DNA from: Mytilus californianus
Taxonomy: Eukaryota
Assembly: GCF_021869535.1 (NCBI RefSeq)
Contig: NW_026262679.1
Location: forward strand, 92,647,982 to 92,711,981
DNA length: 64,000 bases
Direction: 5' to 3'
Shown: one piece after another, positions 18,001 through 56,100 of the stretch
Layout: each line of letters opens with the position of its first letter
How positions within the stretch are numbered: the first letter of the stretch is position 1
The notes under the pieces: generated by a model
Told to the model about the DNA's origin: nothing
The model's database searches: none
What the model saw: only the letters and a program-made list of their open reading frames with translations
Program-made: the position numbers and the translations under genes

Positions 18001-19087
18001 GGTATGATTGGTCCGAAATTTTCTTTGATTGCGATTTTTTCTACGACCATGAGAACGGTTTTTACGAACAGTTTTAGAAACTATATCCAAAATGTTAACA
18101 GAATCGGTTCTTGATATATTACCAATTCCCATGATATTATCATTAAGACCGAGAGGGTAGACAGTCTGTAATTTTTTAATCCAATTTAATTCAATTATTT
18201 TCCGCGATCGTACAAACTTTGAATGAGATTCACCAGGCTGCTTATTTACTACTTCTAAAGGTTGAACTGCTAAATATTTAATAGGATGATTGTGCTTCTT
18301 AAGGTGTTGATAAATGATACTTTTGAATTTATTGGGTCTTTTAAAACGATACAGATGTTCTTGAGTGCGTTTAGATAAATATCGTCCAGTTTCACCTACG
18401 TACTGAATACCGCATCCCGGTTTGTTTCATGTGAGTAAATAAATTATACTGTTTGTTTTTCAAGTTATATCAGTTTCAAAATTTAAAGAAAATGTGCGAC
18501 CATTAAACGTGGACCTTACCGTATTGTTGGTGGAAAGACGGGGACATGTAAGTCATTTTTTGGCATGACACTTATCGATAGAAGGGTAACCACGATTTTT
18601 ATTGTTAAAAATGTTAGCGATGGTAGTATTTTTAGATAAGCGATTTTGAAGATTGAGACGTGTAGATACCCTTTGAACGAGTTTAGTATTTAATATTTTT
18701 CCATTTCTAAGCTTCATATTTGTTTTTTGTTTGTGAATTATATTAGAAAGGAGCAAAGACTGGCGTCCAGAATATGAACCAGCATACAATGAATTAAATT
18801 ATGTAAAAATGATAAATCTGTTCGGCTAAAGATGTCAAACGCTATCCGTATTAATTACCCGAAAAAGAAAGGGTATATTAGGGTAGCGACTGACGTCTGA
18901 CTAAATAGTAGAATGGGGCTGAATATTGAAATACTACTTTTTGATAAATATTCCTAAAGTAATGAACTAGAGAAGTTCTCGCTCGGACACACACTCCATA
19001 ATCTAGTATATTATAAGAGCATAAACCTGAAGCACGGGGAGGCACTCTACTGTCTCCACACGGCACTAAAGACAAACTCTGTAAAAA
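15066..19087 (-). mobile_element. Full-length Penelope-like retroelement (copy A1), permuted domain order: N-terminal GIY-YIG EN - CxC linker - RT (Naiad-like)
   Basis: It is ~4.0 kb. On the minus strand it holds a ~300-nt 5'UTR, one long reading frame from 18789 to 16018 and a ~640-nt 3'UTR. It abuts the 3' end of the truncated copy A2 at 19087/19088 and is ~99% identical to A2 over 3 kb. The 3' flank is a T/A homopolymer (15050-15060). Confidence 0.85.
16018..18789 (-). CDS. PLE polyprotein: GIY-YIG endonuclease + CxC linker + reverse transcriptase; single frame containing 4 in-frame TGA codons (candidate selenocysteine codons); truncated in this copy by a TTA>TAA change at 16018-16020
   Basis: ORF-track entries 18553..18789, 17152..18132 and 16018..17016 are all in the same frame, with every start coordinate divisible by 3. 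They are separated only by TGA at 18555-18553, 18462-18460, 18429-18427 and 17154-17152; no TAA or TAG occurs in 923 codons. The GIY-YIG domain reads 'IIYLLT*NKPGCGIQYVGETGRYLSKRTQEH...IIELNWIKKLQTVYPLGLND' (18456-18130). The linker carries the CxC motif 'TSCNCS', then 'VPADKAANNIIIV*RKFY'. The RT reads 'YWLPKLHK...YRFISS', 'YRQVIGIPMGTNCAPLIADLFL' and 'FRYLDDILAL'. The first start-like codon is TTG at 18789; the first in-frame ATG is at 18717. Confidence 0.8.
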
Positions 19088-22000
19088 ATAAAATTGAGAA
19101 TGGAAATGGGGAATGTGTCAAAGAGACAACAACCCGACCACAGAACAGACAACAGCAGAAGGCCACCAACAGGTCTTCAATGCAGCGAGAAATTCCCGCA
19201 CCCGGAGGCGTCCTTCAGCTGGCCCCTAAACAAATATATATACTAGTTCAGTGATAATGAACGTCATACTAAACTCCAAATTGTACACAAGAAACTAAAA
19301 TTAAAAATAATACAAGACTAACAAAGGCTAGAGGCTCCTGACTTGGGACAGGCGCAAAAATGCGGCGGGGTTAAACATGTTTATGAGATCTCAACCCTCC
19401 CCCTATACCTCTAGCCAATGTAGAAAAGTAAACGCATAACAATACGCACATTAAAATTCAGTTCAAGAGAAGTCCGAGTCTGATGTCAGAAGATGTAACC
19501 AAAGAAAATAAACAAAATGACAATAATACATAAATAACAACAGACTACTAGCAGTTAACTGACATGCCAGCTCCAGACTTCAATTAAACTGATTGAAAGA
19601 TTATGTCTTCATCATATGAATATCAGGCACAATCCTTCCCGTTAGGGGTTTAGTATCATACCATCATAACATATATGAGAAGAACATAACCCGTGTCATG
19701 CCAACAACTGGTTTTTAAATAAATGTGTTTAGTGCAGATGCAAAGACCTTATAAGTGAATCAATATCAACGCCAAAATATGCAATCTTTAATGACCTGAC
19801 AACAGTATCGTAACTATATCCCTTCTTAATAAGTCTATTTAAAGGTTTTGTTAGTTTCAGAGGTGAATACTGACATTTTTGTGCTTTATAAAGAATATTT
19901 CCATAAAAAATTGGATGTGAAATACCTGAACGTATAAGAAGTCTGCATGTTGAGCTATATTTACGAATGATGTCCTTATACCGATGATAAAATTTAGTAA
20001 ATGTTTTGACTAGTTTGTGATATCGAAAACCCTGGTGTAATAATTTTTCAGTAATACATACATTTCTCTCGTTAAAATCTAAAACATTGTTACATACACG
20101 AGCGAATCGTACAAGTTGAGATATATAAACACCGTAAGATGGTGACAAGGGAACGTCACCATCTAAAAATGGATAATTAACGATAGGAAATGAAAAATCA
20201 TCTCTTTTATCATATATTTTAGTATAAAGCTTTCCGTTAATGATATAGATATCAAGATCGAGGAAAGGGCAGTGGTCATTGTTAGTATTAGCTTTATTTA
20301 AAGTAAGTTCAACAGGATAAATTTCTTTAGTATACATACTGAAGTCGTCATTATTGAGAGCCAAAATATCATCCAAATATCTAAAAGTATTATTAAATTT
20401 GTGTATCAGATGTTGTTTCGATGGGTCTTTACTGATTTTTGTCATAAATTGTAACTCATAGCAATACAAAAAAAGGTCCGCAATAAGTGGTGCACAGTTA
20501 GTCCCCATTGGAATTCCGATAACCTGACGATATACGGAATCTCCAAAGCGAACAAAAATGTTATCTAGTAAAAATTCAAGGGCATATATAGTATCAAAGC
20601 ATGTCCAATTGACATAGTTTTTTTGTTTATTGCTACTAAAAAATGACCTAAAAGAGTTTGAACATATATATTCACATTCTGACTTTTTAAATGCCCATTT
20701 AATTAGGTGTGTGAATTTTTTCTTAATGAGAATGTGAGGCAATGTGGTATATAGGGTAGAAAAATCAAAACTTTGAACAGATTCAAAATCACCAATATAT
20801 GCATGCAATTTATCAAGTACTTCCAACGAGTTTTTGACACTCCAAAAGTAATTAATTCCACTATTTTCGAAGGCCTTATTTGAACAATTTATTATCAGGT
20901 TTTTGATTGTACCAAGTGTACTGGTAAGAAGAATAGACAATTTAGTAGTGGAACAATGGCTTGAAGACGAAATGAATCTATATTTGTAAGGTGTTTTGTG
21001 TAGCTTCGGAAGCCAATACATAGTTGGGACTTTCATTGTATTTGGTTCTGCTTGTAAAGCGGTAGCTAAAAGTTTATGTTTGTTACAGATGTCGTTTTCT
21101 GAAAATGGAGTCAGTTGGAATGTTGGTGAATTGGTGATTTCTTTTTTCAGAACCTCAATGTAAAATTTACGTCAAACAATAATAATATTATTAGCAGCTT
21201 TATCGGCCGGGACAAAAACAAATTCCTTGGCTAGTTCTTTTAGTTTATGTTTGATACGAGAAATAGGTTTATTGTGGTTATTGTTAAGAGTAAAATGTTC
21301 TTTAAAATGTTGAATACGTATATCAACTATGTTCATTACTGATTTAAAAAAAGAGTCCAAAGATTTTTTGTTAGCTTTTTCCCGTTTTATCCATTTCAAA
21401 CAGTAAGTATGGAGTGAGTCGTGGATGATATTACGACACTCATTCCAATTAATAATTGACGGGGGACGATATTTAGGTCCTTTACTGAGGAATGATTTTA
21501 ACTCTCGGTCTTGAACGATGTTAAGATCTCCTGTTATAACATGGGAAATGGGTCCATAAATGTATTCGGAATTACTGCAATTACATGAAGTAGGTGTATT
21601 TTCACTGATATTAACATCTTTACACAATTGGCTATAATTAAACACAAATTTCCGGGTAGATTTCTTGTAAATATAACAAATAAGAGGGAGCTCAGTATTA
21701 TCAAAATATCCCGGAATTTGTTCTTTAACAGAATGGTCGTTAAAAATACCGGCAATATTTACAAAATCAAAACCTTTATTGACATACTTTATTTTAATAA
21801 ACTGTTTTTTATGATCTTCAGGGCGATCAATTTTGGGAAACAGTTTAGAATAACAATATGCCATTATAATTTGAACGATTTCATACTTAGGACTGCTATA
21901 TGAAATTGTGTTGCAATCCTCTAAAATTTTATTTAACTTATTAACCGGTAATGAACAGAGCTTTGTTAACAGATAATGTCTGCCGTTGTTTTTTGAAATA

Positions 22001-22117
22001 GAAATTAGGTCCGAAATATTGGTATGATTGGTCCGAAATTTTCTTTGATTGCGATTTTTTCTACGACCATGAGAACGGTTTTTACGAACAGTTTTAGAAA
22101 CTATATCCAAAATGTTA
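19088..22117 (-). mobile_element. 5'-truncated PLE copy (A2) directly upstream, in element orientation, of full-length A1: pseudo-LTR tandem arrangement
   Basis: Homology to A1 (offset ~4020) runs from the element 3' end at 19088 up to 22117. There the sequence diverges ('aacagaat|aagactag' versus A1 'aacagaat|cggttcttga'), so the EN domain and the first three TGA sites are missing. Confidence 0.85.
19729..22110 (-). CDS. Linker + RT portion of PLE polyprotein (copy A2), continuous frame with one in-frame TGA (21174-21172); intact RT C-terminus ending at TAA 19731-19729
   Basis: ORFs 21172..22110 and 19729..21036 share one frame. The 435-aa RT ORF keeps 'ITEKLLHQGFRYHKL...' where A1 has a stop. 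Confidence 0.75.
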
Positions 22118-27449: not shown

Positions 27450-27990
27450 GCTGCGCCATGAACGCATGATACGCCCGTCGCTTTTTCAAAGAATAAAGTT
27501 CCATAACTCCTCAATGTCATATCAGAAATTTATAAAAAAAAACTAAAGGGATGTTATTTTAATAGATATAAAACAGTCACCAAAGTTTTATGAAAACTGC
27601 TCAAAGCACTTTTGAGTTATTGTCCGAAAACTGGAAAATCCCATTTTTTATGAATAAAACCCCATAACTCAGAATCTAAAATTTATAAAAATCGAAAGGG
27701 AGCTGACGTCACTAGATACATGTATAAACAATTCACCAAAGTTTCACGAAAATTGCTTAAAGCATTTTTGAGTTATTGTCCAAAAACTGGAACCCCCCTT
27801 TTTTAATGAATAAAACCCCATAACTCAGAATCTAAAATTTATAAAAATCGAAAGGGAGCTCATGTCAATAGAGATAAACAATCCACCAAAGTTTCATGCA
27901 AATTGGTTAAAGCGTTTTTGAGTTACTGTCCGACATGTTGACGATGGACGGATGGACAACGGTATACCATAATACGTCCCGTAAACGGGC
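27450..27990 (+). mobile_element. pearl/Helentron-like nonautonomous element (three ~140-bp internal subrepeats, GACGG tail, terminal hairpin)
   Basis: It starts 'gagctgcgccatgaacgcatgatacgcccgtcg', like the element at 7180. It carries three subrepeats ('aaaatttataaaaatcgaaagggagct...caccaaagttt(c/t)a...') and ends 'gttgacgatggacggatggacaacgg...gtcccgtaaacgggcat' (hairpin). Confidence 0.55.
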
Positions 27991-28767
27991 ATATAAAAAC
28001 GATTCGTTTTCTTAAACAACATATTATCAAGAACATTTAGCAATTATACAATTCATTTTCTATGTCTAAAGTCTAAAGTTATTCAATTAAAACGACAACA
28101 TTTGTCGAAGGTCGACCATCATAATGATTTAAAATATTTTATTAAAATAAATATTGCCTGCAGCGTACTGAAAACATCTTCAAAGATAGCTTGGCTTATG
28201 AAGTAGTACGCCAGACGCAAGTTTCGTATACACAAGGCTCATTAGTGGTACTGTTGAAATGCCAAATCTATTACGAAATACTATATAACTGAAAACCAAA
28301 AATTCCAAGTTTTGCAATGTCTTGCTTAGAACATCTAAGCCTTTGGGTAGAACACCTTAGTGTTTCGAAGGATTTTAACATTATATGAACATTAAATTTA
28401 CAGACAATGACCGCCTCAATGATACTTCCTGTCATCATTGCATGGAGGGCTGTATACTAGGCCCTTGATACCTTAGAGGGGAGACTCCGCCATTAGTGTT
28501 ATCGACCCAGTTATGGAAGTTATTTACATCTAAAAATAATCGATGAAATTTATATTTCCACAAATGTTGTAAGTTAATTGCTAAATGCTGATTTAAAAAT
28601 CTTTAGACATATCTTAGATGGTTATTAAATTGATGGTCACCCATTATATATATGGAAAGTAAAACCGAAACTAAAATTCAATAAATGAATTAAAAATAGA
28701 TTAGAATAAATTTACACTGGGAATTTCTTTTTTCCGAGGACGTGTCAGTGACAGGGTTCTAAATAAA

Positions 28768-28780
28768 GATTTACTTGCCT
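28768..28780 (+). promoter_or_regulatory. Putative TATA box upstream of ZAR1-like gene
   Basis: 'gcctatatatgat' lies ~55 bp upstream of the ATG at 28832. Confidence 0.25.
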
Positions 28781-28831
28781 ATATATGATAAAATAAAACA
28801 AATAAGTTGGCAAAACAACACACAAAAGACG

Positions 28832-28960
28832 ATGAGAAGGCGCAATAATCGTAGAGAAAGTATACACAGAGAAGTGAGATGCTTTGGATATTTTCGTTGT
28901 AGATGTTGTGACCATGAATGGACAAGCTCATTTGTCTGGAAAATGTCTGGAACGTTAAAG
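28832..28960 (+). CDS. ZAR1-like (zygote arrest 1-type, zf-3CxxC) protein, exon 1
   Basis: The exon encodes 'MRRRNNRRESIHREVRCFGYFRCRCCDHEWTSSFVWKMSGTLK'. This matches the ZAR1 C-terminal domain consensus '..YGYYHCKDCNIRWESAYVWCVQGTNK'. The ATG has A at -3. The donor is 'aag|gtattg' at 28960/28961. Confidence 0.65.
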
Positions 28961-29766
28961 GTATTGATAACTTTCAAATTCCAAAAGTTTTCAATATTTA
29001 AACTAATTTATTTTTAGAAACTGACCGAGATGCTTAATTTGTTGGTGCTTGTTATTATACATGTTATAAAGAGTATAGTATTAGTGATTGATTGATTTCT
29101 GTTTGCTTAATCATCATTACGTCCAATTACAAAAATAGCATGCATAGTCAGGAACTTAAAAGTAATGCAAAAGCAAGGTTTTGCAAAGTTGGTCGACCAA
29201 GATAAATGGCGAGAAATTTACACAGCCACTAAAGAGTAGAGTATGTAAGCTTTACAACAGGCCACCTATTTCGTTCTTTCGTGGGTTCTTAAATGTGCAA
29301 AGAGGGTGTACTTGTTCTCATACGAGACATCCGATAAAACCACAATATTCCGACTTTGACGTGGCTGTGTATTTATACAACCAACACAGTCAAACGGACT
29401 GCATGACATTTACTGTCGGATGGAATAAGCACAGATGAATGTTTTTGTAAGGCGAAATGCCGGCAATGGTTATTCTTTTCCTATGTGTATTGAAAGTGGA
29501 TCAAATAACACATAACTGAATAAGCACTAAGCCTAAGGTACATATACACTATTATGATACAGAAAGCATTAAATTATGAAACGCATGTACATATTTAGTC
29601 TGAGTATTTTTTTCTAAATGAGTTTTATTATAAAAAAAAATGATTGGATGTTTTTCAAGCGCGAAAAAGACATTATGCTATTTAAAAATAAAATATGGTG
29701 AAGTGATAGACTAAAACGACCGATTATATTGGATGGCTTTGTAATATATATTCCATTTTCTTCAAG

Positions 29767-30009
29767 GTTCTATATAAACAACAGTGCATGGAGTGTGATG
29801 AACTTATGGGGCCATACAAAACAACACCTCTTATTTGTTCCGGTTGCGGGATGGTGAATTGTGAGTGTGAAGAGGTCAATTCTGAACCGAAAAAGCCGCA
29901 CCTGTCAGAGTTATGTGAAAGGTGTCAGTCAGGAAAAAAATGTCAATTATCACTAGAAAAATGTATCTTCCCTTGTTCTAAGCGTGGTGGAAGAAGATAT
30001 CGCCATTGA
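29767..30009 (+). CDS. ZAR1-like protein, exon 2 (terminal)
   Basis: The acceptor is 'ttccattttcttcaag|gtt' and the phase is 0. It encodes 'VLYKQQCMECDELMGPYKTTPLICSGCGMVNCECEEVNSEPKKPHLSELCERCQSGKKCQLSLEKCIFPCSKRGGRRYRH*'. This matches ZAR1 'VYFKQFCRTCQKSYNPYRVEDITCQSCKQTRCSC...PHRQDLCGRCKGKRLSCD'. The total protein is 123 aa. Confidence 0.65.
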   Translation, partial: VLYKQQCMECDELMGPYKTTPLICSGCGMVNCECEEVNSEPKKPHLSELCERCQSGKKCQLSLEKCIFPCSKRGGRRYRH

Positions 30010-33000
30010 TGTTAGCATCTAAAACACATTTACAATATATTGGAAATGTTTATTAAATTATTTGTTTCTTATCAAATATTATATCACCTTAATAATAAGT
30101 CAGGTTTTGGACTCGAGCATCACTGAAGAGACGCTAATTGTCGCAACGCGCATCTGGTTTAGTACCATTGGTACCGTTTATGGTAGCATTAATAGCATTA
30201 ATTTTCCATCCGCCGTCTGTCTTTTCACCATTTCATTTGAAAATACTGGGCTAATTCAATCTAAACTGAATCCAGATAAAACAAGTGGCTTTCTTTAAAA
30301 AAAGAAAAGCAATACCTGAACCTAAGACCGCTGACTGGTCACCAAAAGACTGTTGCTGAATTTTTATTTGCTTTTGAATTGAAATAGTTGACTGTGAATA
30401 GAAGGAGATAATGATGAAGTTAAACTACCTTTATTAAAAATATGTAATAGTGTGTACATTCTTGCACAAGTCAGTTGAAAGCAATGTTGGATAGGTGTGA
30501 ATAGAAAAGTGTATATACAGCTACTATTTGAATATACATTTTAAAGCTCGACTATTTCATTTATTACTTGGGATTGTACATCATTTCTTTATAATTCTAT
30601 TGCAAATCCCAGTTTCTACAAGTGTATAATGCAAATTGCACAAACCAATCGCAATATAAATGTAAGCACTCAGTTTGTTTATAATCTTGATGCATTTATT
30701 TTATCTATCACATCTTTATATTTTGTTTCCTGCATGGATGCCTTCATATTCTCAACTCGTTATTGAAGTTGTCTGTACTCATGGTAGATGTTGTACAGAT
30801 AAATTTAGTCCATTTTCCATGTGAAGTGAAACCCTGTGGCATGCAACTTATATCTCAAAAGAACCAATTTATATAAAAAGACATGTAGATATAAAAAAAA
30901 ATACCAGGATTAACATGTTGTACGCCAGACGCGAGTTAAGTCTACAAAGAATCATCAGTGACGCTCGAATAAAAATAGTTAAAAAGGCCAATTAAAGTAC
31001 GAAGTTAAGTAATCTATTCCTTGGGTAGAAAATACTTGGCATTTCGATAATGTCAATGTTTATAAAAGGACAGTGACTCAAAAAAGAAAACAAAAGAGAA
31101 ACAGCTAGAGGTCAGAATACCGTAAGTAATGATGACCGTGCTTGAAAGTCACATGGCAAGCTTTTACTGCCGTGTCCTGAATTTAGATAAGAAAAGCGAA
31201 AATTCGCAATCGCGAGTGAAATTAATATTTATGCATGAACATGGTATTTTTGCGCAAGAAATAGTAAATAGAAAGCATACGCACTGATACTCTGGATAAG
31301 AATACGCATTTGCGTCATCACATATTTTAATCTAATAGTTGAATTCGGATGTCAAACTTCCTACCTCAAGTGTTTTGACTCCGGATTCATTGACATTTTA
31401 TCCGGAATTTTTGTGAACGCAAACCGATAGTGTGCGTGTTAACAGGGTGATGTATAATGTGAAAGAATCAAGACGTGTAGGATAGCTGACCAACACAATG
31501 AATACAATTTTAAAAACCGTACCATAGTACAAATATTAAGATGCTATAAGGTTGAACTAATAAAAGAAAAAAAAAAAAGAAACAAAAATAATTAACATTA
31601 TGATAGTAATTAAATTTTGTTATGATTATTGTAAAATATTAATTACGTTTTTTGTGAGATGCAAGGATTTAAAATCTTTGTGAATTGAAACCACGCAAGT
31701 ATTTTTTCATTCACGACCGTTTAAAATTTAGATCTAACTTTGGGTATGCATCCCTGCTCATAAGTTACATATAATTTTCATAAATGTAATGACTGATCAA
31801 ACCTGTGAGACATAATGCAGGTATACATTACAATTTTAATTATATTCTATAATTATTAGGAATAAATTCAGTCTCAGATTAACCTTAACAATAAATATTC
31901 AATTAGTCTGGTAGTATCTATTAATGAAATTAGATATTTTTTTACAGAAAAATCCTTTTGTTTGATTATCTTTCTGCTTTCCGACCACTGTGTTTTCGAC
32001 CTTTAAGTTAGATAAATATGTTTAACAGAAATATCGTTTTCTTAATTTTCTTCATTCTTTCCGACATTTTGTCATGCTATGATTGAAATACTTAATATCA
32101 AATGATAAACGTTCAGAAATAATCAGTTTATTCTGGGTCATTGTATATCAATAAACTATTCACAGGTTTATTAAATACAACACACACAACGCGTAGAGTG
32201 ACCGTCTCAAAGCATGAATTATATAATTGCGTTATCATTATACTTGATATTCAATAAACATTCACATTATTAAAAACATATATGTTTTGTCAAAAGGCAA
32301 ATAGGTTCCAACATATAAATGATTTTTAGAATGCAACCTAGTCTTTATTGTTTGACTTTCAAATCTACAAATGAACCGTTTGTCGGATTGTTGAAATATA
32401 CAATGTCACGTTGTAGCCTATCCATAGAGGGACCGTATCAAAGACATAAATAACTACCTATATAAATGATGGAAAATTTTCGAGACTTTCCGAGAGTCGT
32501 GATTCCGAGGATATCGAGTGGCCCATAGACACTTCCAAAACTCGCCAATATATAAACGTGAACCCCTCAGGGGGTTCACGCAAAAAATGCTTCAGCAGAC
32601 AGTTGTTTCTTCTGGTTGCTTATTTTTAATCTTATTTTCTTTTTGAACCACGGAGTCAAATATTTTCAAACTTCGATAAATGAAAATCCTTTAAATATTG
32701 TTTATCTCACCTTGACACTGTTCTTTGATATATGTATGTTGTGTATAAGATGTAAGTTTGTACAAATTAAAATTTGTACAGGGTTTTTGTACAAGTTATA
32801 AGTTTTTTGACACACACCTTTTTGCACCGGGTGATCAAAGTTTATCTTCTAAAATTTATCAGCTCAATGTCTTAAATTCAAATTTATAACACTTCAAGCT
32901 AACATTTAGTGCTATACTCCTTGTCCTAAAACGGCTGTCCTAAAACTGGAAATAAGGACACCTGAAGGGTTTAAATTCTATTTGTATTTGTCTCCTTATA

Positions 33001-33259
33001 CCAAAGTCATATCCATAAAAAGTCTTTTTTGTGTTCTTATAATGTTTTTTGTAGCAATGCTCAGTATTAGACTGTGTCAAGTAGTCATGGAAATATGACA
33101 GCAATATGCGAAACAAAAGATTGTGTGCTTTTATCATCCATTTGTGTTAAGCGGTTCATAAAACACTGATAACTTGTACAAAAATTCTGTACAAATTATA
33201 ATTTGTACAACATTACAATTTGTACACAACATATACATGGCCGTTACATAATCGGGGGT

Positions 33260-33540
33260 AACCAATTATTTCCACTAAACTGATTAAGTTTATCACTAAC
33301 CTTGCATGTTGTCCTACAGAGTACACTTCAAGATAAGTTAAGTTTATATTGCAGTAGTTGGGGTTTAACAGTAAATCTTGAAAAAAACAAAATGATTTTT
33401 AACCAATTTGGTAATAAACTTACAAAAGACGAGTTTGTTTTTAATGATAATGTTTTGGAACATTATACAGAATATAAATATTTAGGTATAGTGTTTAAAC
33501 CCTCTGGTATCTTTATTGAGGCGGTGAGAATGATATAATT
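33260..33540 (+). mobile_element. LINE (non-LTR) reverse-transcriptase fragment
   Basis: 'LYCSSWGLTVNLEKNKMIFNQFGNKLTKDEFVFNDNVLEHYTEYKYLGIVF' is the conserved RT region ending in the YLG motif. No intact ORF flanks it. Confidence 0.5.
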
Positions 33541-33844
33541 AGAATTATTGTAAAATTCACAAGTGACATGTACAATATTCTAGAAATGCTTTATTAAGTA
33601 ATAAATAACTTTGTAGTACCACCTCCTCAGCGGAGACTAGATTATACATATATGTATATACAATTATATATATTAATGTAACAATATTTTCTTTTTTTAA
33701 TAATGGAGGGCGTATACAAATTTATATATACATGTACTGTATATAAATGTTGACAGATATGTGTATGTAAAGTTATGTATAGCCAATGTTTATTGTCAAA
33801 TTTGGTACAAATCCTATAATTTTGAATTTTAAACCAATAAAATA

Positions 33845-33868
33845 TCTTATCTTATCTTATCTTATCTC
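33845..33868. repeat. (TCTTA)n microsatellite
   Basis: 'tcttatcttatcttatcttatctc'. Confidence 0.9.
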
Positions 33869-35099
33869 TAATCATAACAGTTTCAAGCAAACACGAAACC
33901 ATGAAAAATTGACAAATCAAAGATAAAAGTACCAACAATAACGGATGGATTGCATAAATTACTTTATTTGTATCGAGATTAATGCTACTTTAGTTGCCGA
34001 ATAACCCTATTGGAATTGCATTTCGATGCGTGGCCATTCTGTTCCTAATTTGATAGGAACTTAAAATAAAGAACCTATTATTTATTCTTTATTTCATTCC
34101 AATAGGCTGAACAACTGGACTGTTCGAAGCACCTCTAGGTTCTGATATGTCAATTAGAAATATTTCAATTTTCATTGGAGCAAAAACTCAGAAATTTGAT
34201 TCCGGAGTCTTGGTGACTGTGGTACCGTATAGGTCATTATTAAAAAGATCCCTATAAAAAAGGTGACATTTTACTCGATGAATTCGAATGGAATTTGCGT
34301 GAAGAATGTAGGGAAGGTCTTTTACAAAAGTACTAATTTTGTTATGATCGTGAGAAAACTAAGGCCTGGAGTAAAATATCAAGATCCAGAGTGGGTCTCC
34401 ATTTAACCATTCCAAATGTCTCGCTCGTAGATAGATTAAATATCATCTGTAAATGAATGATTAAATGATACATAGAGATGCATATTTTCTCAAATGCCTC
34501 GTTGATAAATTAGAAGTTATTTAGGAAGTAAGGCTCCAACTCCCTCAGGCAAGGTTGACTTGCGATGAATTTGGCTTTTTAAGTCATATAGCTCCTAACG
34601 TTTCTTTGTATTTATACATCCCTGGCTTTCAAATAGCTTTAGGCGTTCCTGGTGAAGGCTAATCCATAAAAGCGATTCGCACATAATTTAGAAAGCAGGA
34701 CCAATGTATGCTGGCTACTGCAAGAAGCTTGCTAAGGTATCTACATAGGTTGGTTGATACTGTCCTTCAAGAAAAGAAAACAAAAAATGACAAGCAACAC
34801 TCCTAATAGGTTTCATGTAGTTTCATTTTTAAAATTTAATTGAAAACGTAAGTATTTGTGAATGTCCGGCAAGTAATTTAAAATAAATCGTCAGGCCATC
34901 GGAAGAACGATTTTAACTAATGTAAGAGATTTCCCGAGTTAAAATATATATTTTTCAGTGTTTTAGTTCTATCAAAGACACCATTGATGACATAAAATAT
35001 CAATGATTTTCTGTAACATCATTGCAGTTAAATTACATTTGAAAACGATGAAAACGATGAGGGATTTTTATACCCAAATAGATGGCCTATGGCCAGATT

Positions 35100-35240
35100 T
35101 GGTTGACTTTTGAAATTTTTGGGTTTCAATGCTTTTCAGCTTCGTAATGGATTTGTTTTTGTTTACTGTTCAAGAACCACTGATGAGTCTTGTGTATTCG
35201 AAATGCTCGTCTTGCGAACAAAATTATAAGTTTGGTATCT
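35100..35240 (+). repeat. SINE-like repeat with degenerate hammerhead motif
   Basis: 'ccactgatgagtcttgtgtattcgaaatgctcgtcttgcgaacaaaattataagtttggtatctttgat' is homologous to 36420-36640. The CUGAUGA box is present, but stems II and III are degenerate. Confidence 0.5.
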
Positions 35241-36419
35241 TTGATTAATTTTAAACCGAAGAACTGATTAAGAAGTGCTTCATTCCAGAATGCTAATGTT
35301 TGACAGCTTATATGTATTAGAGTGTGTAAATTAGTTTGCTGGCTTTTTATGTGAAATTAACATCAGCTTTGAATACTTATGGAAAGAGTAATTATTGATT
35401 GTCATTCTTAACCAATCAATTCACAGAACCGATAACAATCATGTTGCACGAAGAAGCAGTTTGACCAGTTTGTTTTTATATTTTCGGTATCGATAAAAGA
35501 ATTCATGGTTCACCAAGCAAATAAGTAACCCGAATTTTCTATGTAACTATTAACACTCCCACGTGGTTTAAATGTAAACATTGAATTGATTGATTAGTGA
35601 TTTCTTTACGCCGTATCAGCACAAAAAGGCTATATCGCGACGAGAGCGAATTCAAAACAATCCGTACAATTCAAATGTCATGAGAGGGAAGGCAACTCAA
35701 ACACACCCAAAGGATATAATCACTACATAAGCTGTTAAAGGAAAACACTGTACAAAACATAGACAAATATTTTTACTCTTTGAAATAAACCATTGTAAGT
35801 TTTCTTGCTTGTCTGTCTATCTACATATCTACAGCTGATACACCACCACAGTATGCAACACGAACCCCAACAAAAACTGGGGGTGATCTAAGGTGCTCCG
35901 GAAAGGTAAGCAGATCCTGCTCCACAAGTTAGTGTCATATTTCAATAAAAGATAAGTATGAATCCTTTCCTATCATTGAAACAATTTGTAAATGATTCTT
36001 CACTGTTTATAACAGTTTAGGGGAAATATGGCTTGCCACTTTCACTTCAAATGTTTGTTAAATATGTATTCCTATATCTGAAACAGTTTGGAAAGGGAGA
36101 ATCCTATCTCACTAACATTTAGGTAAAATGTGTTCATTGGTGTATCTCAGTATGAGTTTGGAAAGGATGTTTACCTACTTCTATTAGTTTGGTAAAATGT
36201 GGTGTAACCTTTATGGAAGTTTTGAAAGGAAGAATTCCTCTTACGAGGTTTTGTTACATTATTTTGGGTTTAAATCATTTTAATCGCTCATTATTACCAG
36301 GGAAATTTTGTTAGTGGAGAACTTAGCAAGTGATCGGTGTCACTTCCCACTTTGAAAAAAACCCTCTCAAACCAATCACATGTCAAGTCTGAACCTGCTC
36401 CACTTCCTCTGTAATGACC

Positions 36420-36640
36420 ATTTTTAATAGTAAGTTGATGGGTGAATGCTGAACAAATTCAGCACTCCGCATCGAAGTTACTTTCGGAATTTTGGGTCCT
36501 AAATGCTCTTCAACATCGTTAATTATTTGGCCTTTTAACTTTTTTGATTCCAGCATCACTGATGAGTCTTTTGTAGACGAAACGCGCGTCTGGCTTTCAA
36601 AATTATAAGCCTGTTATCTTTTGTTGACGTTTTGTTATAT
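36420..36640 (+). repeat. SINE-like / PLE-pLTR-like repeat carrying an intact minimal hammerhead ribozyme motif
   Basis: The ~200-bp unit is shared with 35100-35240 and 44260-44460 ('...ctaaatgctcttcaaca(t)tcg...ttgattccagcatcaCTGATGAGtcttttgtagacGAAAcgcgcgtctggctttcaaaattataagcctgttatctttt'). Confidence 0.55.
36559..36592 (+). ncRNA. Type-I minimal hammerhead ribozyme motif: CUGAUGA - stem II (GUC/GAC, 7-nt loop) - GAAA - C GCGC G (1-bp helix III with palindromic loop) - UC cleavage site
   Basis: 'CTGATGAGTCTTTTGTAGACGAAACGCGCGTC'. Every invariant core nucleotide is present. The architecture (very short helix III capped by the palindromic tetraloop GCGC) is that of the dimeric hammerheads described in Penelope-like element pLTRs and metazoan retrozymes. 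Stem I can form between 'gcatca' upstream and 'tggcttt' downstream. Confidence 0.55.
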
Positions 36641-37785
36641 ACTGACCGACCTTAGAAACGCAACACTAGATTATTCTTTTTAATTCCCATTTTCAAATAT
36701 GCAATTTTTGCTAAACAAATATACGAACATATATTTCATTCATTACTTCATTGTTTAAAAGAAAATTGCAGTTCGAAAGTTGAATTGGTAACGTCATTTT
36801 TAATTTTCAAATCATGTGGTATGCACTGAAACCCTGGTTTTCCCCTTGCCAATGGATGTGTCACCGTCGAAAGCAATGACTGCCTGTAACCAACGCCAAA
36901 ATGATTGTCAGAAAGGTCAACCAATTCTGTTCGGCATGTTTTGGGTTCTGTTTTGCACCTTAAGATTTTGCCTTAGTCCCACCCATTACAGTGTGTTTTG
37001 GCAATTATACGGTTGAAACTTTAGGGCTTTAAATGTTTTTCTGCAGTCGATTCTTTGGCATTTCAGTTTATGCGAAACATTTATGGCATGAATCTGTGTG
37101 CCATGGCATTCGGCAATTTGATTAGGAGTTGACGTTGATGCCGTAAACATGTCTCGCAAATGACGTTGCGTAATCAAATTCTATTGACGTGGCCTTGTCA
37201 CTACATATTGATCTGGTCATTGATGGTCATCAACAAATCCCGTCTGCCTGTATCGTTGTTGGAAGGACAGTAAGACGAGTTTCTGACGTCAAACTGTCTG
37301 GTTACAACACGTTCATGTTTTCCTCTCTGCAATGATTCTTATGGGCTGATTCAGTTTTTTATTGCTCAGTCTTGGCAATACGGAGATGCAAAATCGTTTA
37401 ACTGATTTAAGTGTGGGTATGGATTGAAAGAATTGTTTCACGAAGAAAAAAAAAATGAAAAAATCGTTTATGGGTTCCAAATTTCGCTTTAAGAAATTCG
37501 TGCGACTTCAATAACTCAGTATGTTCAATAACCACAGGTAAGTCAGATGTTGATTTTTTCTTAACAGAAAGAAGTATGGTAAGCATGAATAGTAGTTGTA
37601 TGAGGATCAAACATGATTTGGTTAAAAAAAATCAACAAAATGAGTGTTGCGTTTTTAAAGTCAGTCAGTATATGTCATGACGACGGTTTCGTTTGTTTCA
37701 TTCATCTACCCTTTCACGAGCTTGGTATAGAGACATGTTTGTTCACATGACTTAAAATTAACGAATTAAAATGGTATTGAAAGGT

Positions 37786-37885
37786 GCATGGGCCTCGGTG
37801 GCCGAGTGGTCTAAGTAGCCGAACTTTTGTATCACTAGCCTATCAACACTGAGGAATATGATTTGGAATCCCGCACGTGGCAGGT
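37786..37885 (+). other. tRNA-like sequence (probable tRNA-derived SINE head / pseudo-tRNA), not a functional tRNA
   Basis: It has an A-box-like 'tggccgagtggtctaag' and a B-box-like 'ttggaatccc'. The spacing is ~70 nt and no proper acceptor or T stems can be drawn. Confidence 0.2.
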
Positions 37886-38732
37886 GCGCTTGACTCCAAT
37901 CTCAATCAAATAAGATTGTCAGTTTTCCTACCGAAGGTCGATGGTTCTCTCCGGCTTCTTCCACCAATAGAAACTGACCTCCACGAAATAGCACAATAGT
38001 GCTGAAAGTGGCGTTAAACACCAATCAATCAAAGAAGTGATAACACTATTTATTTTTTATTTATAATGTATATGACCGGAAGTAACTTTATTTCTTTATT
38101 GAATCTTTTCATTAAAGAGACTTTGTAAGTTCCAGTTTCTAAGCCAAATAAAAAGTCTTAAAGCAGCACAGTTTGCCTCGAGTTGATGTGAGTGTCTTTA
38201 CACCCAGATATCACTTCCAATATCTGGTGTGGTGTTGAGACAGCTGTATCCATAGAAAAGTAAGCACTGTTCAGTTTTATAGACAAATGCTGTACAATTG
38301 GTTCCATGATGCAGACACAAGTAAGCACAGTAAATCTTTGTTTTGGAATTCTTGGTTAAATAAGAAAGAGTAATTGGGATGGAATCTGTCTTGTCAACAT
38401 GGAAATACCTTGAATCTGTTTTAAAATATTAAAAATACGATATTTAGGTGGAAAATGTTGCAAATATTTACATCGGAAAACAACGGTAGATCAGTTAAAG
38501 TTATACAAAAAATAACCACTCTTAACAAACTTTATTTATCTAATTAATTTATTATCCCTTCTTTATTAAACTTATAGTGGCTATTATGCATATAAATCAA
38601 TAATTTAATAAATTCAAAAGGCAAAGATGCAAACAAACAAAAAATCCACTTCCCTGTTATCTCCTTGTTTTGTCATCTCTTTCTTTTTTTTCAATTCCGT
38701 GAAATTTTAACGTTGTTAGTTATTTTACTTAC

Positions 38733-38843
38733 TGTTAGTACCACCAACATGCCATTGACCCAAAATTCCAGGTGGTGTGCTTACTTCTGTTGTAAAATCT
38801 TCAACAATATCTTGGGATATGGGATAATAGTTCGCCGTTGGAT
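38733..38843 (-). CDS. Candidate downstream exon of multi-CTLD gene (Pro/Thr-rich linker: YPTANYYPISQDIVEDFTTEVSTPPGILGQWHVGGTN)
   Basis: The minus-strand acceptor is 'ataattacttacaatag|atcc' and the donor is 'actaaca|gtaagt'. The exon is 111 nt, phase 1 to phase 1 like all the CTLD exons. Only one frame is open. Confidence 0.3.
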
Positions 38844-39368
38844 CTATTGTAAGTAATTATATGATTTAGTATATATGATGTATAATTGAATAGATATGAT
38901 GATAAAGGGTTAATTTTAATGAAACAGTAGCCTAACTGAACGGTTAAAACATTTTTTTAGATATGCCAACACACGTTCCCCCTACAATCACCTATATACT
39001 TGACTCCAAAAAATGATCATATTACAAAGTTTACCAAGTGTAAGTTCTCGTTTTTCACATTTATGGCAAAATGAGGAAATCACATACATATTCATACAAA
39101 TATACACCCACACTTGACCATGGGAGTATCAGTTTCACTGTTCATTCAGCTTTATCCACATATATAAATGATTTCTCGTTGCAAAAATTGTAAGTCTTTT
39201 CAAAATTGTAAAACTCGATGAGGACGACCAAGGTTTTATTTTCCAAAAAAAAAAAATCATATTTCTGACAAAAAGTATAGACATATGTAACTCATATACT
39301 ATTTATTTTTTTTAAAAATAATTTTAATCGAATCGTCATTTCGATATATCAAGAAAAAACACACATAC

Positions 39369-39577
39369 ATTGACAAAGAAATGGACTTGTTTCCGTTGCT
39401 CGTCTATTATCCCAGTCAAAGCCAACAGTGTAAACAAGTTTAACATGTTGGTTAAGAGCCAATGATGATGGCGCTCCAGGAATCCATGCTGTTTCCGTTA
39501 GATCTGTTCCGTCATTCCATTGGAATGTAATTCCATCTGTTGACGTAAGTCCAATCCAGAAGTCTTTATTATTGTCC
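39369..39577 (-). CDS. C-type lectin domain module C, second exon (…DNNKDFWIGLTSTDGITFQWNDGTDLTETAWIPGAPSSLALNQHVKLVYTVGFDWDNRRATETSPFLCQ)
   Basis: The acceptor is 'atatgttacag|ggacaat'. It holds the WIGL and WNDG CTLD motifs. The exon ends 'tgtcaat|gtatgt', the same position and phase as modules A and B. If that donor is unused the frame continues 'CMCVFS*' to 39349. Confidence 0.6.
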
Positions 39578-40088
39578 CTGTAACATATTTTCAAAGATCA
39601 TTTAAAACTGGCAAGTCCTGAAACGATAATCGTTATATCAAAAGTTACCAGATTCCTCTCGCAGTGCGAATTGAGTAATTATTGATCTCCGTTCCATTCC
39701 ATTATCGCATCAGTAAGCAAGGATTTTAGAATTGCAAGTGGAACCAGTTAGTCCAGTTACTTAGTGTAAACGGCGGTAAAATTCGTGATTCCTTTTGTAC
39801 TGAGGTAAAAAGACGGAAGATTAATCAATATTGTCTTGATTTTCACCGTGTAGGGTGTCTATGCGTATAATTAAAGTGTCTCGGTAGGATTTTCACATGG
39901 TAAGGAGTGTCTACTTACAAATAGAGTGGAAAGTTGGTAGAGAAATTATATTTTAATTTAATGAATGATCAAATAAATTTTAGTAGAATTGTTGTAACAT
40001 GTTTCAAAACGAGTTAATTTCTGGTACACAATTAAGTGTATGTAAAAATAAAAAGTTAGGATCTGTTTTCAGTAGTTATATAACTTAC

Positions 40089-40227
40089 ATTCCCTGGTAG
40101 ACAATTGCATTCTTTGCAACTGTGAACTCTTCATTTGTGTGTAGCATGGCCAGCTCTAATGCATTCATTTCACAATCCAGTTTAGCAGTTTGATAATCAA
40201 CGGAGTAACTCATCGGGTTATAATTAT
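40089..40227 (-). CDS. C-type lectin domain module C, first exon (…NYNPMSYSVDYQTAKLDCEMNALELAMLHTNEEFTVAKNAIVYQGM)
   Basis: The acceptor is 'tcttttatttctgaatgcag|at' and the donor is 'ggaat|gtaagt'. It is 139 nt, the same length as module A exon 1. It holds the 'A..C...A.LA.i.s.EE..F' CTLD signature. Confidence 0.6.
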
Positions 40228-40249
40228 CTGCATTCAGAAATAAAAGACT

Positions 40250-40564
40250 GGTAAGAAAACTCAATGAAACAATATACAGACAACGGTAAGAAAACTCAAT
40301 GAAACAATATACAGACAACGGTAAGTAAACTCAATGAAACAATATACAGACAACGGTAAGAAAACTCAATGAAACAATATACAGACAACGGTAAGAAAAC
40401 TCAATGAAACAATATACAGACAACGGTAAGAAAACTCAATGAAACAATATACAGACAACGGTAAGAAAACTCAATGAAACAATATACAGACAACGGTAAA
40501 AAAACTCAATGAAACAATATACAGACAACGGTAAGAAAACTCAATGAAACAATATACAGACAAT
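40250..40564. repeat. 35-bp minisatellite, ~9 units (ggtaagaaaactcaatgaaacaatatacagacaac)n
   Basis: 'ggtaag' recurs at 40250, 40285, 40320 and so on up to 40530. It lies in the intron immediately upstream, in gene orientation, of CTLD exon 40227-40089. Confidence 0.9.
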
Positions 40565-41099
40565 ACATTATACTGTATAAAGTAGTTGGTCAAAACTCTT
40601 GATTAATTTGCACACAAGTTGACGGATTCTTTTCTAAAATTCAAAGTATCCTACCTTGATGTGCGTACTCTGTGGTTCAGACAACATGTCACAACTATGT
40701 AAAAAATGTTTCAAGATGGCTAAAAAAATATAGAAGGTTGATAAAAGCTTTTGGAATTCAAACATGAAAGAGTACTTTAAAGATTTTTCCTTCGTATAAT
40801 ATGGTTCCATTAAATCAAAATGTTATTCAGTGTCATACATTTCTGCTGAGAGTAGCATTGCACCGTGCAGGGGCGTAGCTAGAATAAAATGATATGCACG
40901 CCGAGCGGAACGAGGCAAAAATTTTATTGGACCATTTTATGCAGAAAATGATATTTTTTTCGGTTTTCGGTCATAGGAGGGTTAAAAGTTGTGCTACATA
41001 GGACTTATAGACAATTTATGAATGCAAAACTATTCAGAATTCTTTTGAATAGGTTAAATCATGGTAAATTGAATACATAAGCAACACATTTTTGTGAGA

Positions 41100-42460
41100 C
41101 AGAATTTACTCAAAATTGTCCAAAATCTGCTCTTCGGGCCTTAGCAGAAACGAACTTCTCCATTACTTTGTCACTATTCACACTGAAATCTGGATGAATA
41201 TGCATTAATGCTAGCGATGATAACCTATCGTTATTCATGGGTGATCGTACATATGTTTTCAACCGACGTAGTACACTGAACGATCTCTCCGCGGTAGCAC
41301 TTGTTTCCAGCATTGTCAACATAATACTCAAAATAGTATCTACAGAAGGACTGGGCTTACTGCATCGAGTGTCTCACACAGCGAAGTTGGCATCTGATCG
41401 TGAGGTGTTATACACCAGCGTGTTTGCCATCGAGCAACCTCCCGATTGAATTTGTCTAAATTACATGCCAGGTCAGTCTCGTACGTATGTTAGTTAGTCA
41501 GCATACCCCCCCCCCCCCCCCTTTTTGAGGGTTTAAATTAAGGTTTGCTGGAAATCAGACTATGAGGTTTTTTTACCCGGGGTATGAAGAACTACGATAA
41601 ATTCGAGTTCAAACGTTGTAATTTACACAATCTATAGTATAGTAATAATTTGGTTCTGTTATTAACAATTTAATTAAGGAGGTGTGTACTTTTCCAAATT
41701 GACTGTTTTTCGAGGTTGGGATTTTCATAAACACTATTTATTTTTTTGCCGGTATACTTTTGACTCAGACATGATTTTTTTTACTATTGAATTTGACACA
41801 ATTTTAAAGTCATTTCCACATACCCCATCAAATCCAAAGAGTTACCCCTGGCATATGCTATTCCATGATTTTGATTTTTGGGAAACGTTTTACATGTTTT
41901 ACACACTAAAAGTGACTTGGAAGAATTAAAATCAACATAGCTCGCCGGGAAGTCAAAATTATTTACATCTTTCCAGTCGGATGTTAGTGATTGCATCTTA
42001 ACTTCTGTCATCTGCAAATTGGAATCGTGCAGACTTGACATGTCTGGTACGGAGGGGTGTTGGCTTTGGAGGTGACGGTCGAAACTGAGCTGGAGCTTGC
42101 AGTTGCATTTTCACTGTCATGATTTATTCTATCATACTCTGGCAAGAATTGTTGGGAAATGGGTTCTTCTGAAGAACTTTTCGTTTCTATTGAAATGGGT
42201 TTAGTAAAAAAAAAACTGTCAATAGTTTTCCATTTAGCCTTTTCACCTTTTTCGCTACGTTTCGACGTCGTGTCGTGTAACTGTTCAACGCCGGAAATTT
42301 GATGTGCTCTTTTTTCACCATGCCGATGTGCACGCAACTGCGTGTTGGCCTATAGGGAGCTACGCGCCTGGCACGTGTGCAATAGTAGTATCTGATTGCT
42401 GTTGATGGAGACAATTTTGACCTAATATTACAGATGTTTTTTGTAAAATTTAGCATCGAA
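41100..42460 (-). mobile_element. Internally deleted hAT-superfamily DNA transposon remnant
   Basis: The minus-strand 41110..41331 reads '...LETSATAERSFSVLRRLKTYVRSPMNNDRLSSLALMHIH', the hAT C-terminal dimerisation-domain signature. It is preceded by '...FNREVARWQTRWCITPHDQMPTSLCETLDAVSPVLL'. An upstream fragment reads '...KAKWKTIDSFFTKP...'. Confidence 0.5.
41506..41521. repeat. C16 homopolymer
   Basis: 'cccccccccccccccc' adjoins the hAT remnant. Confidence 0.9.
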
Positions 42461-42977
42461 GAAAATCTATAACCAAATTGAGAAAATATGTATCTGAAAA
42501 TGTACTTTCGATGGATAACATTAATTTAAGGATAAAACCTCAACAAATGTCATACTCTTTTTACAATTGCAGTTAACAGACATCCTGAGGCATTTATAAT
42601 TTGGTTGCTTGTTTAAAAATTCTAGATAAGGATGCAATACTGTAATAATCATTAGAGTAGATGATAGACCTAGCGCGAAATAAATTAGGGAAATTCGGTC
42701 AATATCTCTTTCAATTTAAAATTAAGAAATGTGATGACCTTCAGATAAAGATTAATTCGTTTCTTAATGTAGTTTCAAATATTGTATCAAAATTACCTGA
42801 CATACATGTAGCTTAATAACTTTTTGACTTCATGGAAAATTGAAGAAAAAGATATATAGATATATTATTTGCTCTGCTGAACATTTACATACCGTTGGGT
42901 ATTATAATTATCAACTTTCTAATATTGACAATGCTAAAACATTCAAACATTAAAGTGGTAAAACGTTTGTTATTTAA

Positions 42978-43122
42978 GAAATGAATGCTTCTTTTTGTAA
43001 TTTTATTGGGGTGTAAAAGTGTTGACCGAAGCACATTTTGTATGAAGCGCTTCATTCTAAAAATGAGTGCACGATCAACACTTTTACACCCCAATAAAAT
43101 TACAAAAAGAAGCATTCATTTC
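42978..43122. mobile_element. Foldback/MITE-like element with perfect 48-bp inverted arms
   Basis: 'gaaatgaatgcttctttttgtaattttattggggtgtaaaagtgttga' (42978-43025) is the exact reverse complement of 43075-43122. The spacer is 49 bp. Confidence 0.7.
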
Positions 43123-43538
43123 TTATAATTACATTTTTATGTTAATAAGACCATGCGAATGTAACATTCATTTTGATACGAAGGCTAATTTTTGAATGAC
43201 GCGCTATCGGATTCTCGTGAAACATACATGCAATGTAATCATATTTGAAATAAAGAACAAAACATTACACGTAAGGTGTTCATATTTCATTTGATACAAC
43301 TATTTTACTGTTGATTCGAATGTTTGAATTTTAAACTTCCTATAATTTTTTTTTGGGGAGGGGTATTTGAACAGTCAGTTTAAGTTCAATTTGAAATCCG
43401 TGTATACATTAATAATTTCTCTGTTAGTGCAAAGATCGAATGTGAAATCGTCTATAAGCTATAAAATAGTGTTGCCGTTAATAAAGCACAAAATTCTACG
43501 ACAGCATACAGTATGACTGAAGTGCATCTCAAAACTGT

Positions 43539-43750
43539 TACAACTTACACTGACATAATCCGTGAGGAAGTCTGGTAGATTTAGTTTTTGACACCCATGT
43601 ACCATCGACCTTGTCCACCGCTATAGAGACGTTTGCATCCGGATTGGGAACGGAGTGACCTGGTTTCCAGTCCGTATAAACCACATTTTCGAACATGTTT
43701 TGCCAGGTTAAATGTGCTCCATTACCATATAATCCTATCCATACATCACC
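43539..43750 (-). CDS. C-type lectin domain module B, second exon (…PLTGDVWIGLYGNGAHLTWQNMFENVVYTDWKPGHSVPNPDANVSIAVDKVDGTWVSKTKSTRLPHGLCQ)
   Basis: The acceptor is 'ttgtttttgtgtaag|acc' and the donor is 'tgtcagt|gtaagt'. It holds the WIGL, W..G.P and DGTW CTLD motifs. Confidence 0.55.
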
Positions 43751-44259
43751 AGTCAGAGGTCTTACACAAAAACAACATAATTTATTAATACTTTACAGAT
43801 TAGTCTTGTTTAGTGTGACCCCATACACAATATGCATAAAACTTTCACAATAAATATTTCTGGGAATACATCAAAATATTTCATATCTCATGTGATGCAG
43901 AGAAAGCTTATACACTGTTTGCTGCCAAACCCAATTAAATTAATTTTGAAAAAAACAATTGTTTTAACTATCCCTTAATATAATTCAAGTATATACCCTA
44001 AAAGAATACACCTCATATCCGAGAAATGAACAGAACAGTGCGTATATTTCGAATGTGAATATGAATCAATACAAAGTTATATGATACAAAAGCTAATTTT
44101 ATGCACTGTATGCGCATTTTGAAAATTTATTTCTCGTTAGTGACGCTCCATTTCAAATACGAACAATCCTTAAGTATCAAATAATGAGAAATTATAAAAC
44201 AAAAATAACATAAAAATGCAAAATTCAGCTGAAGAGCGTCTAAGGATTTCCCACCCCAT

Positions 44260-44460
44260 GAATAGAATACCTTAGCTGTATTCTGCTAAATCTTCAGAAT
44301 GTTTGGCCCCCCAATGCTCTTCAACTTCGATGCTTTATTTGGACTTATTACTTTTTTATTCGAGCGTCAATGCATGATGAATCTTTTGTAGAAGAAACGC
44401 GCGTCTTGAGTACAAAAGTATAAGCCTGGTATCTTTGATGAGTTTTTTTATCGGAAGGAA
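44260..44460 (+). repeat. SINE-like repeat with degenerate hammerhead motif (third copy)
   Basis: 'gcatgatgaatcttttgtagaagaaacgcgcgtcttgagtacaaaagtataagcctggtatctttgatgag' has CUGAUGA>CAUGAUGA and GUC/GAC>AUC/GAA changes. Confidence 0.5.
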
Positions 44461-55599: not shown

Positions 55600-56100
55600 A
55601 TGTAATAAGAAATAGATATCATTGAGATGTGAGCCATCTGTGTGGACCCCGCTGTGAATAATGTGTGGTAAAAAATTTGTATCTTTATCATTGGACATGG
55701 GGTTGTCAACTGAAACCAAAGTTTTTGACCTTGACCTTTGACCTAAGAAGTTGTACATAAATTATGACACACCCTCTGGTGTTGGTTTATATACATGTCG
55801 AGTATAAATTTTGAAATCATAACGGTTCTCAAGATTTAGAGCAGACACGATCTTTACCATAGGACATGGGGTTGTCAACTAAAACCAGTTTTTGACCTTG
55901 ACCTTTGACCTAGGAAGTTGTACATACATTATGACACACCCTCTGGTGTTGGTTAATATACATGTCAAGTATAAACTTTGACATCATAATGGTTCTCGAG
56001 ATATAGAGCAGACACAACTTGTTATGGAATGACGGACGGACAGACAGACACAGACTGATCACTATAGGGCGTCTGCCATTCGGCAGGGCCCTAATTATTC
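55600..56100 (+). mobile_element. pearl/Helentron-like nonautonomous element (two ~163-bp subrepeats)
   Basis: '...cattggacatggggttgtcaact(g/a)aaacca...tttgaccttgacctttgacctaagaagttgtacata...' occurs twice. It ends 'ggaatgacggacggacagacagacacagactgatcactatagggcgtctgccattcggcagggccc'. Confidence 0.55.

Follow-up and report, generated by a model that had tools for sequence, protein, structure and literature searches.

A hammerhead ribozyme motif in Mytilus californianus that very probably belongs to a fossil copy of the published mussel retrozyme

The hammerhead motif at positions 36559–36590 of the window, by which we mean the whole 64,000-nucleotide stretch of Mytilus californianus DNA that was analyzed, lies in a repeat that is very probably the metazoan non-LTR retrozyme known from Mytilus galloprovincialis, with a unit of about 353 nt, the copy at 36559 (the focal copy) being a fossil of it. 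The ribozyme, the element, its self-cleavage, and its circular RNA were all published in 2020, and nothing is new in the element itself. That work (Cervera & de la Peña 2020, PMC7229834) reported about 5000 such hammerheads in repeats of 350–390 bp, distinguished the HHR families A and B, and printed in its Supplementary Table 2 the genomic retrozyme clone Mg353 ("Rtz Genom mussel Mg353"). The hammerhead of Mg353, CTGATGAGTCTTTTGTAGACGAAACGCGCGTC, is identical letter for letter to bases 36559–36590 of the plus strand of the window, and the published primer 109R_HH_Mytil_Rtz (PMC7229834) is the reverse complement of part of that hammerhead. According to the same study, the monomeric Mg353 genomic repeat self-cleaves co-transcriptionally in vitro at about 0.1 per min, circular RNA of the retrozyme family is abundant in mussel gonad and mantle, circularization is carried out by tRNA ligase and not by the ribozyme, and the mussel ribozyme lacks most of the nucleotides of the loop 1/loop 2 tertiary contact.

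The likeness to the published element is not restricted to the ribozyme. When a dimer of the 353-nt Mg353 unit was compared with the window by blastn, all six copies of the repeat aligned with it, also outside the hammerhead, the flanks being 63 to 87% identical depending on the copy. The identities are 81.5% over 157 bp for the focal copy, 76.5% over 217 bp for the copy at 44375, 86.5% over 89 bp for that at 30950, 71% over 73 bp for that at 30130, 64% over 285 bp for that at 35180, and 63% over 405 bp (about 1.09 units) for that at 28220. The focal copy is also 84.9% identical over 152 bp (blastn) to the unit of a metagenome contig, L003, in which the element forms an array with a unit of 355 bp, as compared with 353 in Mg353. 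The retrozyme option of the first-pass annotation, which had proposed either a retrozyme or a canonical EN+ Penelope-like element (PLE) and in any case a family other than that of the Naiad-type copies in the window, is therefore borne out by the match of motif and flanks to Mg353, and the repeat is indeed a mobile one distinct from the Naiad copies.

As in the published Mytilus retrozyme, the sequence is non-coding and AT-rich and contains a GC-rich hairpin segment. Other hallmarks of retrozymes are equally present, namely non-coding sequence of low GC content (33% GC in the window) with no LTR, PBS, or PPT. None of the six copies contains an ORF with a Pfam match, and the window holds no tRNA that would point to a tRNA-derived SINE head. 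The copies differ from the published element in that they are solitary, mostly 5'-truncated, and mutated instead of tandem, and in that helix I of the focal copy is decayed. The retrozyme hallmark of head-to-tail repeats of 170–400 bp, each with a type I hammerhead, is seen in L003; no head-to-tail tandem array of the family exists within the window. Retrozyme derivatives that exist as monomers are known from published work.

The six copies, detected with blastn and nhmmer and refined in their extents by blastn against the published Mg353 unit, all lie between 28.2 and 44.5 kb, and all are solitary; five are 5'-truncated and one covers about 1.09 units. The focal copy (36482–36635, plus strand) is a 5'-truncated fragment of about 155 bp that runs from about unit position 243 to 353 and continues for about 45 nt beyond the cleavage site. 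Its hammerhead, taken with both strands of the decayed helix I (CCAGCAUCA ... UGGCUUUCA), spans 36550–36599. Two other plus-strand copies are 5'-truncated at about unit positions 120 (34985–35257) and 190 (44240–44451). In the former, the hammerhead remnant at 35180–35211 retains an intact core with a single pair in helix II and a non-palindromic loop 3, GCUC; in the latter, the remnant at 44374–44405 has C3 replaced by A, a 4-nt insertion, and a broken 10.1/11.1 pair. On the minus strand, a copy with an internal deletion (30884–31142) carries a remnant at 30928–30958 in which the 6-bp helix I is intact, G10.1 is replaced by U, and G12/A13 by UU. The oldest and longest copy, also on the minus strand (28172–28552, unit position 13 through 353 plus 43), has a G5 to A change in its remnant at 28214–28245. 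The most divergent hammerhead fragment (30105–30172, plus strand; 30020–30251 by nhmmer) possibly stems from another subfamily, and its remnant at 30123–30154 shows a helix II U-A pair turned into A-U, A13 changed to C, and G16.2 changed to A. Each of the five non-focal copies carries hammerhead damage of this kind, and the majority consensus of the six is an intact hammerhead, identical to that of the focal copy.

This inventory enlarges the picture given by the first-pass annotation, which counted two sister copies, both with a disrupted core, in a unit of about 200 bp. There are five sisters, the remnants at 28214–28245 (minus strand), 30928–30958 (minus strand), and 30123–30154 (plus strand) having been missed, and the unit measures 353–355 bp as judged by Mg353 and by the L003 array. 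Of the two sisters that had been seen, the one at 44374 does have a disrupted core (C3 to A), whereas the one at 35180 has a whole core and has lost the helix II pairing and the loop 3 palindrome. The six copies fall within 16 kb (28172–44451) on both strands, and the remaining 48 kb contain none. The window copies are mutually only 63–80% identical, and on this sequence comparison the cluster would not stem from recent local duplications; the cluster might have arisen by repeated insertion close to older copies or into AT-rich target sites. No target-site duplications better than chance were found around the copies.

The focal motif carries the catalytic core of a type I hammerhead (RF00163), the CUGANGA and GAAA boxes and the U-H cleavage site, and this core is complete from C3 to C17: C3 U4 G5 A6 N7 G8 A9, G12 A13 A14, A15.1, U16.1, and C17. 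Cleavage is predicted after C36590. Helices II and III are intact. The former consists of 4 bp (GUCU/AGAC) closed by a 5-nt loop, and the latter, in standard numbering, of the two pairs A15.1-U16.1 and C15.2-G16.2 (AC/GU) capped by a GCGC tetraloop; the 3 bp and 1 bp assigned to them earlier are each one pair short. The claim of an intact hammerhead at 36559–36592 holds for a real motif with its core and these two helices and fails for helix I, which has decayed to three contiguous pairs as compared with six in the family.

The Rfam model Hammerhead_1 (RF00163) aligns to 36556–36593 with 25.9 bits, short of the gathering score of 34, and with an E value of 2e-4 when the search is confined to a local stretch of 251 bases and of 0.053 when it covers the whole window; a scan of the whole window with Rfam yielded no match at or above the gathering threshold. 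The GAAACGCGCGUC stretch of the focal hammerhead equals the Hammerhead_1 consensus. Relatives from metagenomes with an intact helix I, whose hammerhead is that of the active Mg353 or differs from it by one loop 2 base, themselves score only 31.2–33.3 bits, so that the gathering score is too strict for the Mytilus retrozyme family, and the 7-bit deficit of the focal copy reflects its lost helix I pairs. The Infernal search that had been suggested as a check thus formally gives the unfavorable result (25.9 against 34), but a result shared by Mg353-type relatives is uninformative. The low score and the whole-window E value are also what could be said for a hammerhead-like sequence that arose by chance in AT-rich DNA, an explanation to which we give practically no weight. 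In shuffled sequence, the core pattern CTGATGAG..CGAAA has an expectation of 0.01 per window; it is seen twice, both times in the retrozyme repeat family; the consensus of the six window copies and that of eight metagenome copies are the same hammerhead; and a ribozyme whose activity has been demonstrated by experiment, that of Mg353, has the very same motif. The rarity of the pattern, together with the identity of motif and flanks to Mg353, refutes chance resemblance.

In architecture, the motif of the retrozyme family is a canonical metazoan type I hammerhead and not the minimal hammerhead (min-HHR) of PLEs. Cervera & de la Peña 2014 (PMC4209133) give for the canonical type I form a helix I of 6 bp, a helix II of 4 bp, and a helix III of 1–2 bp with a palindromic loop of 2–4 nt, and for the PLE min-HHR no helix III, a helix II of 7–8 bp with a 5' bulged base, and a helix I of 4–5 bp. 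With a helix II of 4 bp, a helix III that is present, and a family helix I of 6 bp, the motif is not, as had been proposed, exactly the minimal hammerhead of PLE pseudo-LTRs. The mussel motif and the PLE min-HHR are nevertheless alike in being type I, in their link to retroelements thought to share the PLE machinery, and in the placement of the hammerhead a few tens of nucleotides upstream of the 3' end of the insertion; they differ in the features of the helices and in that no RT-EN ORF adjoins the window copies.

The description of the motif as dimeric-type, acting as a dimer, is not upheld either: the published Mg353 monomer cleaves at about 0.1 per min, and a dimer would not seem obligatory in the Mytilus family. 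The palindrome ACGCGCGU can pair between molecules as an 8-bp helix, and a double hammerhead formed through it is possible in tandem transcripts. The ribozyme resembles those of the newt satellite 2, Schistosoma Sm-alpha, and the axolotl Amex1 and Amex2 (RF00163) in its open helix I, 4-bp helix II, short helix III, and palindromic tetraloop. However, the obligate double hammerheads of the newt/Amex1 kind combine the palindromic loop with a one-pair helix III, whereas here the palindromic loop closes two pairs, and Amex1 needs dimers whereas the Mytilus ribozyme cleaves as a monomer.

Alternatively, the repeat could derive from an autonomous canonical EN+ PLE (Penelope/Poseidon or Neptune), as its pseudo-LTR or its 3' end, and the copies would then be 5'-truncated PLE insertions. 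PLEs bear hammerheads near their ends, truncation at the 5' end is common among their insertions, which have a defined 3' "tail", a 2026 preprint relates vertebrate retrozymes to PLE pseudo-LTRs, and the window copies do have a common 3' end and variable 5' ends. Yet the longest copy, 28172–28552, wraps round the 353-nt non-coding unit and does not continue into an ORF, L003 consists of pure 355-bp head-to-tail units that lack an ORF, the architecture is the canonical type I one, and none of the six copies is adjoined by an RT or GIY-YIG ORF; in particular, no ORF combining an RT with a C-terminal GIY-YIG domain, as in a canonical EN+ PLE, lies next to any of them. We regard a PLE end as very unlikely, and the EN+ PLE half of the earlier proposal is not supported, no such ORF adjoining any copy, while the retrozyme half stands on the Mg353 match. 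The only PLE ORFs of the window belong to the Naiad copies at 16–22 kb, which, as had been stated, lack the motif: no hammerhead match occurs there, in agreement with Craig et al. 2021.

The tandem Naiad-type copies (16018–22110, minus strand) showed a peculiarity of their own. Each has two ORFs in the same frame, split by one in-frame TGA after ...ADKAANNIIIV, one such TGA lying at 21172–21174. A SECIS_1 match of 31.7 bits (gathering score 35) is located about 50 nt past the final TAA, with SECIS-like stretches at 19613–19677 and 15593–15657 on the minus strand. On these sequence features the Naiad copies of the window look selenoprotein-encoding; selenoprotein-encoding Naiads have been described in clams and spiders (Craig et al. 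2021).

A scan of metagenome contigs with the motif retrieved six loci, the flanks of which align to the window copies too. These six relatives have GAGCGTCA upstream and TGGCGTA downstream of the hammerhead, which gives the 6-bp helix I of the family (GCGUCA/UGGCGU), and they differ from one another in loop 2 (UUUGU, UAUGU, UUUUU) and in outer helix I. In L003 the units follow one another head to tail, cleavage sites recur every 355 bp, each unit includes a GC-rich hairpin segment, and there is no ORF; the array was established by eye and with blastn, Tandem Repeats Finder having reported nothing on this contig despite its plain 355-bp periodicity. In two relatives that were not selected by the motif, L003 606–795 (minus strand) and L004 1783–1818 (plus strand), the sole core lesion is at G8, which is changed to U in unit 1 of L003 and to C in L004a, the hammerheads otherwise following the family consensus save for one loop 2 base.

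The hammerhead pattern gave no hits in bacterial and archaeal genomes, and a flank 19-mer gave none in viral contigs. The 19 bacterial and archaeal hits of the flank 19-mer were rejected as chance matches in Nostoc and other MAGs, none of them with the repeat. In one marine metagenome contig (L005, ORXM01079405, 1124 bp, coverage 1.9; segments 1–227, 338–826, and 829–1122), the retrozyme is joined to bacterial-type ORFs for OmpA (PF00691) and a class V aminotransferase (PF00266). This contig is most likely a chimeric low-coverage assembly rather than a bacterial copy; a bacterial origin is disfavored because bacterial genome contigs lack the element.

In an alignment of eight copies picked independently of the motif, identity to the consensus amounts to 87% in the 32-nt hammerhead and to 66–72% in the flanks, a contrast that is inflated since gaps in truncated copies were counted as mismatches. 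With that reservation, the core is more conserved than its surroundings, as a check put forward with the first-pass annotation would have it for a genuine ribozyme family. Across the family 84% of the helix cells are paired. Covariation is not significant: three pairs show changes in both partners, a number attained by 59 of 500 shuffles. The signal is of the order of the shuffles because the family is too closely related, or too young, for such a test.

The focal copy itself has helix I strands GCATCA and TGGCTTT, which form three contiguous pairs where the family has six (GCGUCA/UGGCGU), as a result of three substitutions. By nearest-neighbor calculation, the hammerhead fold comes to +3.4 kcal/mol in the focal copy as compared with −4.4 in Mg353, values that omit tertiary contacts and serve only to rank the two sequences; the focal sequence has its minimum free energy in a structure other than the hammerhead. 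The cleavage activity of this copy would be doubtful because helix I is down to three contiguous pairs. It might at best cleave a read-through transcript weakly, and a lone hammerhead on a 155-bp fragment makes the release of unit-length RNA impossible. The copy is best taken as a fossil in which the 32 central bases have by chance escaped mutation.

That these 32 bases are unmutated could alternatively mean that the 36559 copy is a functional ribozyme retained by the host, which cleaves in cis and processes a host transcript. The hammerhead shows no change in 32 nt, whereas the adjacent 79 nt diverge from Mg353 by about 18%; under uniform decay this would, by our calculation, have a chance of 0.82^32, or about 0.002, and solitary intronic hammerheads are known from the literature in amniotes. 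But the divergence of the flanks is probably in large part one between source subfamilies that predates insertion, the hammerhead being conserved in all active lineages, and the focal copy was picked from six for its intact look. These two circumstances explain most of the contrast. Moreover, there are three substitutions in helix I, on which folding depends, and the energy of the hammerhead fold is unfavorable. A host-retained ribozyme is accordingly very improbable, and we keep to the reading of the copy as a fossil.

The six copies sit in a transposon-rich stretch. Two ORFs of this context, both on the minus strand, match Pfam above the cut-off, a C-type lectin exon (PF00059, 39349–39594) and a remnant of a hAT transposase dimerization domain (PF05699, 41110–41331); a weak 3CxxC zinc-ribbon ORF (28775–29017, plus strand) remains below it. 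The divergent hammerhead copy at 30123–30154 lies about 110 bp downstream of the stop codon of a Cys-rich ORF (29788–30009, plus strand). Tandem arrays unrelated to the retrozyme were also observed in the window, at 27577–27933, 55681–56015, 59603–60221, and 40250–40563, with periods of 156, 167, 160, and 35 bp, respectively.

The extents of the copies reveal a common 3' end. The five alignable window copies start at unit positions 13, about 98, about 120, about 190, and about 243, and all end at positions 33–47 of the next unit, about 46 nt past the cleavage site. The six metagenome relatives likewise stop about 46 nt 3' of the cleavage site, with 5' ends that vary. In the twelve solitary copies of window and metagenomes, no similarity was found beyond unit position +46 (z at most 2.1 relative to shuffles), the first 46 nt aligning well except in the two most divergent copies, 28220 and 30130. 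We also considered that the copies extend past +46 and decayed faster in the CpG-rich hairpin; this was rejected by alignment against shuffled controls. Directly after position 46 begins an AC-rich, GC-rich hairpin, CACUGGG...CCCAGUAG, which is preceded by ACACCAC or GCAACCAC.

Target-primed reverse transcription characteristically leaves variable 5' ends and one fixed 3' end. In the cycle proposed in the literature for active members, head-to-tail arrays give rise to multimeric RNA that the hammerhead cuts after GUC in each unit, the monomers are circularized by a host tRNA ligase, and circular or multimeric RNA is copied back into DNA, probably by the RT of a Penelope-like element. A PLE enzyme of this sort has been studied in vitro: the RT of the Anolis Poseidon PLE (PAc) initiates internally, at an AC-rich stem-loop (Frangieh et al. 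[quoted passage not shown] In the mussel retrozyme, as in this system, insertions have a fixed 3' junction that lies downstream of the hammerhead cut, coincides with an AC-rich stem-loop, and would not depend on the RNA 3' end; the retrozyme differs in the distance, about 46 nt instead of about 85–92 nt, and on the retrozyme side the comparison is drawn from the sequences of 11 copies. We suggest that cDNA synthesis on retrozyme RNA may start at a fixed internal site on an uncleaved or circular template. By analogy with PAc, the copy ends would fit the PLE scheme of internal initiation and thus support the proposal that PLEs mobilize retrozymes. As a tentative reading, to which we assign somewhat less than even chances, the common 3' stop might indicate, at the level of sequence, that a Penelope-like RT copies mussel retrozymes from a fixed internal start, which would also explain the 16-kb cluster through re-insertion near older copies. 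We did not find a fixed internal RT start stated for retrozymes in the literature examined.

As a discovery the motif carries little weight, the element being published and the focal copy an ordinary truncated and decayed fragment. In practical terms, six stretches of the window can now be annotated as retrozyme remnants. More generally, the Hammerhead_1 gathering score misses a proven Mytilus family by about 1 bit, so that scans at the gathering threshold under-count mussel hammerheads. The common 3' end of solitary copies, taken over the whole genome, would bear on whether PLE reverse transcriptases mobilize retrozymes by internal initiation.
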